From the NCBI RefSeq assembly GCF_003018255.1, contig NZ_CP027440.1: a stretch of 64,000 bases of DNA, one strand, 5' to 3'. Position 1 is the stretch's first letter, and the number at the start of each line of letters is the position of its first letter. The position numbers were made by a program, and so were the translations under genes. This stretch comes from Escherichia coli (lineage in GTDB: Bacteria > Pseudomonadota > Gammaproteobacteria > Enterobacterales > Enterobacteriaceae). Under the pieces are notes generated by a model. The model was given only the letters and a program-made list of their open reading frames with translations. It was not told where the DNA came from and searched no databases. This document shows positions 27,375-34,942 of this stretch, in pieces.

Positions 27375-29252
27375 ATGTCTGCATCTTCGGTTAAGCCGTT
27401 AAATGTTCAATTACCCGCAATAACCCTTATCCTTTTTGCGCTCTGTGTTGGGATATTTTGTTACCTCGCACAATGGATGAGTTATGAAGAAGTCGATCAA
27501 TCCGCACTTATCCATCTCGGTGCTAACGTTGCTTCTCTCACGTTGTCGGGTGAATCCTGGCGCTTATTGAGCAGTGTCTTTCTGCACAGCAGTGTTTCTC
27601 ATTTGCTGATGAATATGTTTGCACTCCTGGTGGTGGGGGGAGCGGTGGAACGTATTCTGGGGAAATGGCGACTCCTGATTATCTTGTTATTCTCCGGCAT
27701 CTTTGGTGGGCTGATCAGCGCCTGTTATGCGTTACGCGAAAGTGAGCAGATAGTCATCAGCGTTGGGGCATCCGGGGCAATTATGGGAATAGCGGGCGCT
27801 GCGATAGCAACACAGCTTTCTTCAGGTGCGGGTACACACCATAAAAACCAGCGGCGAGTATTTTCTCTGTTGGGTATGGTGGCGCTGACACTGTTGTATG
27901 GTGCCCGGCAAGCAGGAATAGATAACGCTTGCCACATTGGCGGCCTGATTGCGGGGGGCGCGTTGGGTTGGCTGAGTGCGCGTTTAGTTGGGCAAAATCG
28001 GCTCGTTACGGAAGGCGGGATTATTGTTGCGGTCACTCTTCTTCTGACCGGGACTATCTGGTTTGTGCAGCAGCAGATTGATGAATCAGTTTTACAGGTC
28101 AGGCAAAGCCTGCGTGAAGCGTTTTATCCGCAGGAGATTGAACAAGAGCGACGACAAAAAAAGCAGCAGTTAGTGGAGGAGCGCAACGCCCTCAGGGAAA
28201 CATTATCCGCTCCGGTAAGTCGTGAGCAGGCCAGTGGTGATTTACTCGCTGAGATTGCCGATATCCATGATATGGCGATCAGTCGGGATGGTAATACGTT
28301 GTATGCCGCAATTGAAAACACCAACAGCATTGTTGTTTTCGACCTCGGACAAAAGAAAATCCTGCATACCTTTACAGCGCCCATAGCGAAAGAAAAGTCA
28401 GTCAAACATTGTGGTGGCTGTAAAGATCAGGGCGTCAGATCGCTGGCATTAAGCCTGGATGAAAAGTTGATTTATGCGACTTCATTTGAAGCGAATGCAG
28501 TATCGGTCATTAACGTGGCGACGGGGGAGATTATTCAGTCGATTACCACCGGCGCCCATCCTGACAGCCTTATCCTCTCGCGTGATGGCACAAAAGCCTG
28601 GGTGATGAATCGCACCAGTAATAGTGTGTCAGCCATTGATCTGGTGACTTATCAGCATGTGACGGATATCCCGCTGGAGAAATACGACGGGACGGGGACG
28701 AGCGGTAAACCAGGCGCCTGGGTTATGGCACTTTCCCCGGATGAAAAAACATTGTTGATACCCGGTATGGTCAGAGGCGACATTGTACGCATCAATACCA
28801 TCACGCATCAGAAAGAAGACTTTCCCACAGGTGATGCGCGTGGTATCGTTTCTGCGATGGGATTCCGACCAAAAAATGGCGAGATTATTTTTGCCGATAG
28901 CCAGGGGATTTCACGTATAAGCGTAGGGGATCAACAAGCCAGCATTATGACGCAATGGTGTAGCAGGAGCGTTTATTCCGTTGAGGGTATTAGCCCGGAC
29001 GGTCAATATTTAGCGTTGGTGTCATATGGCCTGCAAGGTTATGTCATCCTGCTCAATATTAATGCCGGGCAGATTATTGGCGTTTATCCTGCCAGCTACG
29101 TTAATCACCTTCGTTTTTCAGCGGATGGTAGAAAGATATTTGTTATGGCGAAGAACAGGTTAATCCAAATGGACAGGACGCGCTCGCTTGATCCGCAGGC
29201 AATTATTCGGCATCCCCAATATGGCGATGTGGCTTGTATCCCTGAACCGTAA
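27375..29252 (+). CDS. rhomboid-family intramembrane serine protease fused to a C-terminal beta-propeller-like repeat domain (625 aa); accessory gene
   Basis: ATG 27375; GlpG-like TM2 H71/H76/N80 then GGAVE; GASG with Ser133 (nt 27771-27773); CHIGG with His187 (nt 27933-27935); predicted 7th TM helix; C-terminal [L/I/F]S-x-DG-type repeats. Confidence 0.8.
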   Translation: MSASSVKPLNVQLPAITLILFALCVGIFCYLAQWMSYEEVDQSALIHLGANVASLTLSGESWRLLSSVFLHSSVSHLLMNMFALLVVGGAVERILGKWRLLIILLFSGIFGGLISACYALRESEQIVISVGASGAIMGIAGAAIATQLSSGAGTHHKNQRRVFSLLGMVALTLLYGARQAGIDNACHIGGLIAGGALGWLSARLVGQNRLVTEGGIIVAVTLLLTGTIWFVQQQIDESVLQVRQSLREAFYPQEIEQERRQKKQQLVEERNALRETLSAPVSREQASGDLLAEIADIHDMAISRDGNTLYAAIENTNSIVVFDLGQKKILHTFTAPIAKEKSVKHCGGCKDQGVRSLALSLDEKLIYATSFEANAVSVINVATGEIIQSITTGAHPDSLILSRDGTKAWVMNRTSNSVSAIDLVTYQHVTDIPLEKYDGTGTSGKPGAWVMALSPDEKTLLIPGMVRGDIVRINTITHQKEDFPTGDARGIVSAMGFRPKNGEIIFADSQGISRISVGDQQASIMTQWCSRSVYSVEGISPDGQYLALVSYGLQGYVILLNINAGQIIGVYPASYVNHLRFSADGRKIFVMAKNRLIQMDRTRSLDPQAIIRHPQYGDVACIPEP

Positions 29253-29329: not shown

Positions 29330-30868
29330 TTAATGTTTACGTGCTCGCAGACTCATCAGCACAGCTGCAAAACCAAACAGTGCCGTCAGCACCCACAGCG
29401 GCCAGTTGCCGGTACGTGCGTACGGTGTGAGTCCGGTAGTCGGCGTCACGTTAGTGGTTAACACCTCGCGGGTGAACTGCGGGATCATCGCCTGAATCTC
29501 ACCCTGCGGGCCAATCACCGCCGTAATGCCGTTGTTGGTGCTGCGCAACAGTGGGCGCGCCAGCTCCAGCGCACGCATTCGCGCCATCTGGAAGTGCTGC
29601 CATGGACCAATAGACTTACCAAACCACGCATCGTTGGAGATAGTCAGCAGATAGTCGGTATCCGGGCGGAAGTTATCGCGCACTTGCTCGCCGAGAATGA
29701 TTTCGTAGCAAATGGCCGCAGTAAGTTGAATGCCATTCAACGACAGCGGTGGCTGAATATATGGTCCGCGGCTGAATGAAGACATCGGCAAATCAAAGAA
29801 CGGTGCTAACGGACGCAGTATCGACTCCAGTGGGACAAACTCGCCAAACGGCACCAGATGGTTTTTGTTATAGCGATCGGCTGATTCATAGCTGTACGGT
29901 GCGCCTTTACCCAGTGTGATGATGGTGTTGTAGGTATCGTAGCGGTTCTGTTTATTGAGACGCGCGTCGACAATCCCGGTGACCAGCGAGCTCCCTTTAT
30001 CGCGCAACTCACCGTCCAGAGCTTTGAGGAACGGTTGCTGATTAATTTCCAGATCGGTTATCGCCGACTCCGGCCAGATAATCAACGATGATTTGCCCAT
30101 CAGCGGTGCCGTTGCGTTGTAGTATATCTTCAGCGTATTAAGTAGCTGGTCTCCGTCCCATTTCAGCGATTGCGGAATATCGCCCTGAACCATCGAAACC
30201 TGAATAGTTTTTTCCGGTTGCGGGGTAAACCACTGGATGTAACGCAGCGGGAAGGGAAGGGCAAACAGCACGACGGCCACCACCAGCGGACGCCAGTTGC
30301 GTTTGACCAACGCCAGTGCCAGCAGGCCGCTAACCATCATCAGCAGGAAGTTAATGGCTTCCACGCCCATTATCGGTGCCAGCCCTTTTAACGGGCCATC
30401 AATCTGGCTATAGCCGAACTGTAACCACGGGAAGCCTGTTAGTACCCAACCGCGCAGAAACTCGGTCACTTGCCAGAGAGCAGGGGCGGCAATCGCCACG
30501 CGCAGCCAGGTGGTTTTCGGCCACAGACGCGACAGCACGCCAGCAAACAGTCCGGTATACAGCGACAAATACGCCGCCAGCAGTACCACCAGGAAGATGT
30601 TAACCGGGCCAGGCATTCCGCCAAAGGTCGCGATGCTGACATAGACCCAGTTAATACCGCTGCCAAAGAGGCCAAATCCCCAGCAAAAGCCAATAGCGGC
30701 AGACTGGAGTGGACGGCGGTTAAAGGTCAACGCCTGAAGCCCCATCAGCGAAATAATCGCCGCAGGCCAGACGTCGTAAGGAGAGAAGGCCAGCGTTCCG
30801 CAGGCACCGAATAATAACGCCAGCAGCAGGCGAATGCGCTGGCGTTCAATTAATGAGGCAAAAGCCAT
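29330..30868 (-). CDS. lnt: apolipoprotein N-acyltransferase Lnt (512 aa)
   Basis: ORF track; recognised sequence. Confidence 0.95.
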
Positions 30869-30892: not shown

Positions 30893-31771
30893 TTATTCAT
30901 CCAGCTTCGGCTGGGGTGAGTCATCCGGGATTTTGACATGAACCTGAATAATACGCCGACTGTCGGCCATCGCCACTTTGAACTGGTAACCGTCGATGTC
31001 GATGGTTTCGCCACGCGCCGGAAGATGCCCAAATGCCTGCATCACCAGACCACCGATAGTGTCAACCTCTTCATCGCTAAAGTGGGTGCCGAACGCTTCG
31101 TTGAAGTCTTCAATAGAAGCCAGTGCGCGCACGGTCCAGGTATGACGACTCAGCTGACGGAAGTCGATATCATCTTCTTCGTCATACTCGTCTTCAATCT
31201 CACCAACAATCAGTTCCAGGATGTCTTCAATGGTCACCAGACCGGAAACCCCACCGAATTCGTCAATGACGATCGCCATGTGGTAACGCTGAGAGCGAAA
31301 CTCTTTCAGCATCCGGTCTACGCGCTTACTTTCAGGAACGACAACCGCCTGACGTAACACTTTGTCCATGCTGAAGGCTTCAGCATCGCTGCGCATAAAC
31401 GGCAGCAAGTCTTTCGCCATCAGAATCCCTTCAATGTGATCTTTGTCTTCGCTAATCACCGGGAAACGTGAGTGGGCGGACTCGATGATGACATCAAGGC
31501 ATTCGTCCAGCGTCTGGTTGCGTTTCAGGGTAATCATCTGGGAGCGGGGGATCATGATGTCGCGAACGCGTTGGTCTGCGATGTCCATCACCCCTTCGAG
31601 CATATCGCGCGTATCTTCGTCGATAAGGTCGTTCTGCCCGGAATCACGGATCAGCGCCAGCAGTTCGTCACGGTTTTTCGGTTCACCGTGGAAAAGTTGG
31701 CTGAGTAACAGGGAGAAAAATCCCTTCTTGTTGCTTATCGTGTCACTACTGTGTGAATTGTCGTCGCTCAT
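30893..31771 (-). CDS. corC: Mg/Co efflux-associated CBS-domain protein CorC/YbeX (292 aa)
   Basis: ORF track; recognised sequence. Confidence 0.93.
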
Positions 31772-31860: not shown

Positions 31861-32328
31861 TTATTCTTTCTCGGCAATGTACGGATCCTCATAGCCCAGA
31901 GCAAGCATAATCTCTGTTTCGATGGCTTCCATTTCTTCTGCTTCGTCATCTTCGATGTGATCGTAACCTAACAAATGCAGACTGCCGTGCACCACCATAT
32001 GCGCCCAGTGCGCCTCCAGTGGTTTGCCTTGCTCCTGAGCTTCCTTCTCAACCACCTGACGGCAGATAACCAGATCGCCCAGTAGCGACATTTCCATGCC
32101 AGGCGGTACTTCAAACGGGAAGGAGAGCACGTTGGTCGGCTTATCCTTACCGCGATAGGTCAGATTCAGACTGTGGCTTTCGGCGGTATCGACCACGCGA
32201 ATAGTCACTTCCGATTCTTCCTGAAACTGCGGGATCACCGCATTCAGCCATGTCTGAAACTGGCTCTCTTCCGGTAACCCGGAATTATCTTCACATGCCA
32301 GTTGTAAATCGAGGATCACCTGACTCAT
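31861..32328 (-). CDS. ybeY: endoribonuclease YbeY (155 aa)
   Basis: ORF track; HxxxHxxxH metal motif ([11 protein letters not shown]). Confidence 0.95.
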
Positions 32329-33365
32329 TTTTGTTCCTGTTCTTCGCGCTTGCGTTCTGCTGCCAGCGCCGCTTTACGTTTTTGTTCGGCTTCTTCCCAG
32401 GCTTCATAGGCGTTAACGATACGCGCCACCACCGGGTGACGAACCACGTCTTCGCTGTGGAAGAAGTTAAAGCTGATCTCTTCGACATCAGCCAGTACTT
32501 CGATGGCATGACGCAAACCAGACTTGGTATTACGCGGCAGGTCGATCTGTGTGACGTCGCCGGTGATAACCGCTTTTGAGTTAAAACCGATACGGGTCAG
32601 GAACATCTTCATCTGTTCGATGGTGGTGTTCTGGCTCTCATCAAGAATGATAAACGCGTCGTTCAGCGTACGACCACGCATATAGGCCAGCGGTGCGACT
32701 TCAATAACGTTGCGCTCAATCAGTTTCTCGACTTTCTCAAAGCCCAGCATTTCAAACAGCGCGTCGTACAGCGGGCGCAGATACGGGTCTACTTTCTGGC
32801 TTAAATCGCCAGGCAGGAAGCCCAGTTTCTCACCGGCTTCTACTGCCGGACGAGTCAGCAGAATACGGCGAATTTCCTGACGCTCCAGGGCATCAACTGC
32901 CGCAGCCACTGCCAGGTAGGTTTTACCCGTACCCGCCGGGCCAACGCCGAAGGTAATGTCATGGTCGAGAATATTGGCGATGTACTGCGCCTGGTTTGGC
33001 GTGCGCGGCTTAATTACGCCGCGTTTGGTTTTGATATTGACCGCTTTGCCGTACTCCGGCACGCTCTCCGCGCTTTGCTCCAGTACCCGCGCTTCTTTAA
33101 TCGCAAGGTGGATCTGTTCCGGTTCGATATCCTGAATCTGACCGCGCATCGGGGCAGTATCGACATACAGGCTACGCAGAATGTCTGCCGCAGCGGTGAC
33201 GCAAATCGGACGGCCGGTCAGTTTAAAGTGGTTATCGCGGCGATTGATTTCGATGCCGAGACGGCGTTCGAGTTGTTTGATGTTGTCATCAAACGGGCCG
33301 CACAGGCTCAACAGACGCGCATTGTCTGCTGGCTCCAGGGTGATTTCGCGAGTGTCTATGTTCAA
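32325..33365 (-). CDS. ybeZ: PhoH-like ATPase YbeZ (346 aa), TTG start
   Basis: Track ORF starts at ATG 33404 with no SD; TTG at 33363-33365 has SD AAGAGGA 5 nt upstream; Walker A GPAGTGKT. Confidence 0.8.
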
Positions 33366-33517
33366 ACCGTTCCTCTTATCTGTATGCCGCCGGAAGCTGA
33401 ACATTCACCGGCCTATAAGGAAATTATTCACGCCACAGGAAAAAGGCGCAAGCATTGCGATAAAGATGGGGATAAAGAGAGAAAAAACAAGGCCCACCGG
33501 AACGGCGGGCCTGAGAA

Positions 33518-34942
33518 TTACGGCTGATAATAACCCACGCCAAGGTCGTTTTCTTTGCGGGTACGGGCAATCACCGATTCCGGTGTTTCTGCCACGCGCA
33601 GACCCATTTCATCTTCAGTTCGCACCACTTTACCGCGCAGAGAGTTCGGGTAGACGTCGGTAATTTCTACATCGACGAATTTACCGATCATATCCGGCGT
33701 ACCTTCGAAGTTGACGACGCGGTTATTTTCAGTACGGCCGGAAAGCTCCATGATGCTCTTACGCGATGTACCTTCTACCAGAATACGCTGGGTGGTACCG
33801 AGCATCCGGCGGCTCCATGCCATTGCTTGCTGATTGATACGTTCTTGTAGAATATACAGGCGCTGCTTCTTCTCTTCTTCCGGAACATCATCAACCATAT
33901 CGGCGGCTGGTGTACCTGGACGAGCGGAGAAGATAAAGCTGTAGCTCATGTCGAAATTGACGTCGGCAATCAGCTTCATCGTTTTCTCGAAGTCTTCGGT
34001 GGTTTCGCCAGGGAAGCCAACGATGAAGTCAGAACTGATCTGAATATCCGGACGCGCCGCACGCAGCTTACGGATGATCGCTTTGTACTCCAGCGCTGTA
34101 TGGGTACGTCCCATCAGGTTCAGAATGCGATCGGAACCGCTCTGTACCGGCAGATGCAGGAAGCTCACCAGCTCCGGCGTGTCGCGGTACACTTCGATGA
34201 TATCGTCGGTGAATTCGATCGGATGGCTGGTGGTAAAGCGAATACGATCGATCCCGTCGATCGCCGCAACCAGACGCAGCAGATCGGCAAACGATCCGGT
34301 GGTGCCGTCGTAGTTCTCACCGCGCCAGGCGTTCACGTTCTGGCCGAGCAGGTTAACTTCACGCACGCCCTGAGCAGCAAGCTGGGCAATCTCAAACAGA
34401 ATATCGTCGGACGGACGGCTTACCTCTTCACCACGGGTGTAAGGCACTACGCAGTAGGTGCAATATTTATTGCAGCCTTCCATGATGGAGACAAACGCGG
34501 TCGGCCCTTCGGCGCGCGGTTCCGGCAGACGGTCAAACTTCTCGATTTCCGGGAAGCTGATATCTACAACCGGGCTGCGGTCGCCGCGCACGGAGTTGAT
34601 CATCTCCGGCAGACGGTGCAGCGTTTGCGGCCCAAAAATAATATCGACATAGTGGGCGCGCTGGCGAATGTGCTCGCCTTCTTGCGATGCCACGCAGCCG
34701 CCGACGCCGATAATCAGGTCTGGATTCTTCTCTTTTAACAGTTTCCAGCGACCCAACTGATGGAAGACTTTTTCCTGAGCCTTCTCGCGGATTGAGCAGG
34801 TGTTCAGCAGCAGCACATCCGCTTCTTCCGCCACGTCGGTCAGTTGATAGCCGTGGGTGGCATCCAGCAGATCGGCCATCTTCGATGAATCGTACTCGTT
34901 CATCTGACAGCCCCAGGTTTTAATATGGAGTTTTTTGGTCAT
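33518..34942 (-). CDS. miaB: tRNA methylthiotransferase MiaB (474 aa)
   Basis: ORF track; radical-SAM CxxxCxxC. Confidence 0.95.

Follow-up and report, generated by a model that had tools for sequence, protein, structure and literature searches.

The gene infC, which encodes the initiation factor IF3, is autoregulated via a conserved, non-canonical AUU start codon. UUG is a canonical though weak start codon, against which IF3 discriminates mildly. A UUG start has been mapped for ybeZ of Escherichia coli K-12 by Nakahigashi et al. [quoted passage not shown] Row 7 of their Table S2 places ybeZ initiation at 692601 (U00096.2 coordinates) on a TTG, a shift of 39 nt that agrees with the 2014 annotation. 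TetRP signals in that table are 78.98, 79.30 and 45.15 at the TTG versus 0, 0 and 0 at the 2006 ATG site, and the N-terminal peptide of YbeZ is assigned to the TTG form, as known from its category entry, 'new annotation' (PMC4909307).

We analyzed a stretch of 64,000 nucleotides of E. coli (contig NZ_CP027440.1 of assembly GCF_003018255.1; hereafter the window), in which ybeZ lies on the minus strand. Among the re-annotated starts of Nakahigashi et al. (2016), ybeZ is the published case itself and the window locus shows no difference from it: the K-12 and window sequences are identical from -88 to at least +24 around the TTG, so the published result transfers. Initiation has thus been shown to occur at the UUG whose first base is window position 33365, by TetRP and an N-terminal peptide in K-12, and the AUG beginning at 33404 has been shown not to initiate under the conditions tested. 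A reading made earlier from the sequence alone had placed the probable ybeZ start at the TTG instead of the upstream ATG and had named initiation profiling and N-terminal peptide mapping as ways of checking it; both checks were already in print for K-12, with initiating ribosomes on the TTG and zero at the ATG, and with a peptide that matches the TTG form (PMC4909307). Initiating ribosomes at the UUG, a functional Shine-Dalgarno (SD) spacing and a fitting N-terminus are all found for ybeZ, the ribosome and peptide data coming from the published table. We consider it almost certain that ybeZ is translated from the UUG at 33365-33363 into a 346-aa PhoH-like NTPase and that the ATG is unused; ybeY is probably coupled to ybeZ.

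Cell-free data place some bounds on the strength of this site. By INRI-seq, an in vitro method using synthetic fragments from -30 to +150, the annotated ybeZ start yielded 0 CPM in five replicates, and the same table holds no in vivo Ribo-RET call for ybeZ (PMC9825163). Because the INRI-seq construct of ybeZ does not contain the ATG and the study missed approximately 30% of the annotated starts, the value of 0 CPM cannot favor the ATG. It indicates that in vitro the ybeZ TTG initiates weakly or depends on its context, possibly on sequence beyond -30. The supplement of the TRAINSPOTTER N-terminomics study has no entry for ybeZ.

The start at the rare codon TTG is also the one in current annotation. 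Over the 1261 bp at 32300-33560, E. coli 536 and many other E. coli genomes match the window with 100% identity, and the stretch is found in 5424 of 5426 complete genomes. RefSeq annotates ybeZ of strain 536 as a 1041-nt CDS with its first base at the equivalent of window position 33365. RefSeq ybeZ of K-12 MG1655 (b0660, NP_415193.2, 692338..693378) has the same TTG start, where 693378 corresponds to window position 33365; the K-12 and window copies are one and the same gene, share their start region letter for letter and encode a 346-aa product, with no relevant difference between them. In two more genomes, picked for the lowest identity across the stretch, RefSeq ybeZ also starts from this TTG. 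The TTG start of ybeZ is thus already known from current annotation and published initiation-site data. By exact-sequence look-up, both the 346-aa form, which is UniProt P0A9K3 (PHOL_ECOLI), and a 359-aa form that begins at the ATG are present in public databases. The 359-aa form is common in automated annotations, with at least 1000 contigs in the public protein collections (P0002, P0003, P0004 and P0016), and represents its 90% cluster, while the representative of the 50%-identity cluster (P0016) is a 367-aa variant with a 13-residue extension. N-terminal tags or expression constructs based on the 359-aa entries would include 13 spurious residues.

Layout of the ybeZ start region

Read along the minus strand from 33560 to 33200, the region comprises the end of miaB with its terminator, an intergenic region of 152 nt, a TGA, the ATG, 36 nt and the TTG. 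The longest ORF (32325..33404) encodes 359 aa. As an in-frame TGA (33405..33407) closes the frame directly 5' of the ATG (33402..33404), the ATG is the first codon of this longest ORF, and it was also the start of the legacy 359-aa model. The TTG (33363..33365) is in frame and 13 codons 3' of the ATG, and yields 1038 nt or 346 aa, which with the stop codon make up the ybeZ CDS (32325..33365); the intervening 39 nt (33366-33404) encode the 13-residue extension MFSFRRHTDKRNG. The SD sequence AAGAGGA (33371..33377) is separated from the TTG by the 5-nt spacer ACGGT (33366-33370), and the TTG has the best anti-SD duplex among the in-frame candidate starts in the first 60 codons. No GGAG, GAGG or AGGA is found in the 20 nt upstream of the ATG (atttccttataggccggtga). 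The sequence-only reading, which had described AAGAGGA at a 5-nt spacing before the TTG at 33363-33365, a 346-aa PhoH-like product and an ATG with no SD, was correct in every coordinate, and the anti-SD match of the ATG is also weaker than that of the TTG. At this site, the SD would position the 30S subunit on the UUG, which would be read as fMet by the initiator tRNA.

The AAGAGGA heptamer is not enriched in the window, where it occurs in four copies against 4.8 expected. Among 1183 internal in-frame ATG, GTG and TTG codons of long ORFs in the window, 26 (2.2%) are preceded by a 4-mer SD core at a distance of 4-9 nt and in a single case there is an SD-like run of at least 6 nt. An in-frame NTG with an SD as good as that of ybeZ is therefore rare, at approximately 0.1-2% of internal sites.

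The product belongs to the PhoH-like NTPases (YbeZ subfamily): Pfam PF02562 (PhoH) matches residues 131-334 of the 359-aa form with an E value of 1.2e-98, the P-loop GxxGxGKT is present as GPAGTGKT, and the match to PDB 3b85 has a value of 5.5e-80. As the Pfam and NCBIfam models and the PDB structure all stop short of the YbeZ N-terminus, they carry no information on the ybeZ start.

Leader of ybeZ and the upstream ATG

The intrinsic terminator hairpin of miaB was located by sequence scan at 33490..33512 on the minus strand, and its T-tract overlaps the -35 element of a sigma-32-type promoter motif, CTTGTTT-N13-CCCCATCT (33464..33491), with a predicted start of transcription near 33457. The motif lies at -126 from the TTG in the window and in 15 related species, which together account for 16 of the 80 Enterobacterales loci compared below. 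It fits the sigma-32 control of ybeZ that has been reported (Nonaka 2006, as cited in 10.1101/2023.03.20.533420; also ChIP data). Downstream of it, a conserved block, TTGCGC-N17-AATAAT (33423..33451), is invariant in 14 species as GCTTGCGCC...GGCGTGAATAAT, with 10 variable nucleotides between the halves. From the alignment, this block may be a sigma-70-type promoter located within the transcript made from the sigma-32 promoter, or alternatively a hairpin of 7 bp, UUGCGCC/GGCGUGA. A sigma-70 consensus scan found no promoter, and TTGCGC-N17-AATAAT is visible only in the alignment; the block has no Rfam entry, and no covariation is seen across the 14 aligned species. The text of the Cappable-seq supplement lists no ybeZ transcription start near the expected coordinates, and the Reg-Seq and SELEX papers merely list ybeZ, with no transcription start. 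An mRNA from either predicted promoter would include the ATG, and its structure therefore does not discriminate between the two start codons.

The ATG is enclosed by a putative GC hairpin, GCCGG-N14-CCGGC (33389..33412), the GCCGG and CCGGC stems of which are conserved and the loop of which is variable in the 14-species alignment, with no covariation across these species. We propose that the ATG may be passed over owing to its missing SD and its location within the loop or stem of this conserved hairpin. The foregoing features bear on a possible dual initiation, in which the TTG would be the main start and the ATG would give rise to a minor 359-aa isoform in Escherichia, for example during heat shock from the sigma-32 transcript. 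The ATG is present on the predicted mRNA, some other genes do have dual starts in the data of Nakahigashi et al. (2016; PMC4909307), and the profiling covered standard growth conditions only. However, there are 0, 0 and 0 reads at the ATG, the peptide of YbeZ falls in the category 'new annotation' and not in 'multiple', the ATG sits in the GC hairpin with no SD, and conservation of the extension already fails inside the genera Citrobacter and Kluyvera. Dual initiation is accordingly very improbable, and initiation at the TTG alone is preferred.

A pairing of the SD itself was also considered. In a single-sequence fold, CCUUUU (33445-33440) pairs with AAGAGG of the SD, which is tempting as an SD-sequestering structure or RNA thermometer for a sigma-32 operon. 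This fold was rejected: it is less stable than those of shuffled sequences (z = +1.57), RNAalifold with 14 species fails to recover the pairing and finds no covariation, and relatives break the pairing without compensation. Searched against Rfam, the intergenic region between miaB and ybeZ gave only one sub-threshold suhB/mmgR match, over the miaB terminator (19.5 bits versus a gathering score of 41 bits).

Conservation and age of the TTG start codon

A scan with one genome per species yielded 80 loci from Enterobacterales, in which YbeZ shares 84-100% identity with the query; almost all of the tblastn matches start at query residue 1. The homologous codon is TTG in 73 of the 80 species, and ATG serves as the start in none of the 80. 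As the median identity to E. coli at third positions of codons 2-100 is only 52% (minimum, 35%), the retention of the TTG does not result from a lack of divergence. In 69 of the 73 TTG-bearing species, the distance from the end of the SD to the TTG is exactly 5 nt; the motif is AAGAGGA in 39, AAAGGA in 13, AGAGGA in 9 and another sequence in 12. Upstream of the TTG, an in-frame stop is found within 13 codons in 32 of the 73 species, 27 have no in-frame NTG of any kind, and an ATG at codon -13 is found in only seven, which belong to Escherichia and in part to Citrobacter and Kluyvera. Majority frequencies at codon positions 1, 2 and 3 are 0.92, 0.95 and 0.62 downstream of the TTG versus flat and low values of 0.39, 0.40 and 0.52 upstream of it. 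When 14 close relatives are aligned, the extension contains 1-nt indels and the ATG is replaced by ATA or ACG. Given the in-frame stops, the frame-breaking indels and the absence of codon periodicity, the 39-nt extension is non-coding, and the triplet ATG at 33404 occurs in the 5' leader by chance and in certain lineages only.

These comparisons also bear on the ATG as the real and sole start, with YbeZ being 359 aa. In its favor, ATG is preferred among start codons, many automated annotations carry the 359-aa form, and the K-12 start was at the ATG before revision; against these stand its lack of an SD, the zero TetRP reads, the N-terminal peptide that fits the TTG form, the loss of the ATG in 66 of the 73 TTG-bearing species, and the stops or frameshifting indels in many of the extensions. 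The 359-aa reading is effectively refuted and has next to no probability left. With no ribosome-binding site, no conservation at the protein level and interruptions in relatives, the extension marks the 359-aa model as an artefact of the rule that prefers the longest ORF or an ATG. The gene is a textbook example of an over-extended N-terminus put right by initiation profiling. A start further downstream, such as at codon 19 of the 346-aa protein, an in-frame TTG (33311), is just as remote, since other in-frame NTG or near-cognate codons are present but none has an SD, coding conservation begins right after the TTG at 33365 (N-I/V-D/E-T-R-E-I-x-L-E-P) and the TetRP peak is on that TTG. The claim that ybeZ starts at the TTG and not at the ATG is hence upheld by annotation, published experiments and comparative genomics alike. 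Reasoning from the sequence, in which an SD and its spacing were given weight over the longest ORF, worked in this case, and the current E. coli annotation is right.

The seven species whose homologous codon is not TTG comprise Xenorhabdus, Photorhabdus, Proteus and Moellerella (Morganellaceae-type) and one MAG (loci L070, L074, L076, L078, L079, L081 and L082). They appear to start at a GTG five to six codons upstream, after GAGATAA or AAGGATAA; the Morganellaceae-type GTG lies approximately 15-18 nt upstream of locus position 1001 (858 in L070). Pantoea, Erwinia and Yersinia carry a homologous GTGAC between a TGA and the SD that is apparently unused. In two Yersinia loci (L059 and L067), the leader contains a tandem duplication of GTGACC(T/C)AGAG(G)AA, which includes SD-like sequence, approximately 45 nt upstream of position 1001.

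Beyond the order, 12 representatives with approximately 46-66% identity to E. coli YbeZ were taken from an exhaustive profile search and their contig DNA was read. These homologues are on metagenomic contigs with GC contents of 36-69%, mostly with miaB-ybeZ-ybeY synteny. By ORF logic alone, seven of the 12 start with TTG and five with ATG, and in six of the seven TTG starters TTG is the sole kind of NTG between the upstream stop and the LxLxP-DN motif. The TTG-starting homologues are L085, L087, L088, L089/L090, L091, L094 and L095, with starts at 401, 205, 401, 401, 227, 401 and 268, respectively. On these contigs, the gene directly downstream has ATG as its start in eight cases, GTG in one and TTG in one. 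At a base rate of 4-15%, the probability of at least seven TTG starts in 12 is 1e-7 to 7e-4, in a small sample and with shared ancestry ignored. The TTG start thus seems to be far older than the Enterobacterales. Its retention over such distances in itself implies purifying selection, and the deep conservation suggests that selection has favored a weak start codon over long periods. A weak TTG could limit the amount of YbeZ and, via the ATGA overlap, also that of YbeY. If the deep conservation is real, selection would act on the level of YbeZ and YbeY expression.

Like infC, ybeZ combines a conserved sub-optimal start codon with a role in translation or ribosome biogenesis. However, the AUU of infC is non-canonical whereas the UUG of ybeZ is canonical, and the likeness is an analogy drawn from TTG conservation. 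In a more specific regulatory form of this analogy, the TTG would be a selected feature that makes a protein pair of 16S 3'-end maturation sensitive to initiation fidelity, in a feedback similar to that of infC and IF3; we regard this form as doubtful. Immature or assembly-defective 30S subunits have been found to initiate more readily at non-AUG codons (PMC6868393).

Overlap with ybeY and the downstream genes

The gene order miaB-ybeZ-ybeY-corC-lnt is found in the window, and the same synteny is found on distant metagenomic contigs. The ybeZ stop (TGA, 32327-32325) and the ybeY start (ATG, 32328-32326) overlap by 4 nt as ATGA (32325..32328), as the sequence-only reading had stated, and the ATGA is found in 70 of the 80 species, with GTGA in three others. 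All the genes concerned are on the minus strand: ybeY (31861..32328) encodes 155 aa, corC (ybeX; 30893..31771) follows 89 nt downstream of ybeY, and lnt (29330..30868) follows 24 nt downstream of corC. The 4-nt overlap is the same as that of ATGA-coupled operon pairs of bacteria. Ribosomes that terminate at the UGA of ybeZ would sit on the AUG of ybeY, where they may re-initiate or aid initiation, so that translation of ybeY is probably coupled to that of ybeZ. A weak AGGA is found 6 nt upstream of the ybeY ATG, and the ybeY start yielded 110-210 CPM in vitro by INRI-seq (PMC9825163). As this start initiates well alone in vitro, translation of ybeZ is not a strict requirement for ybeY. Coupling had earlier been read into the entire ybeZ-ybeY-corC-lnt operon. 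This probably holds for ybeZ-ybeY, where the conserved ATGA argues for it, but does not extend to corC and lnt: only ybeZ and ybeY overlap, and with gaps of 89 and 24 nt thereafter the overlap is uninformative on coupling further down the operon.

Downstream of lnt, the window carries on the plus strand (27375-29252) a 625-aa gene, which the annotation of strain 536 lists as a rhomboid family intramembrane serine protease. In K-12, IS5D/insH3 lies beside lnt.
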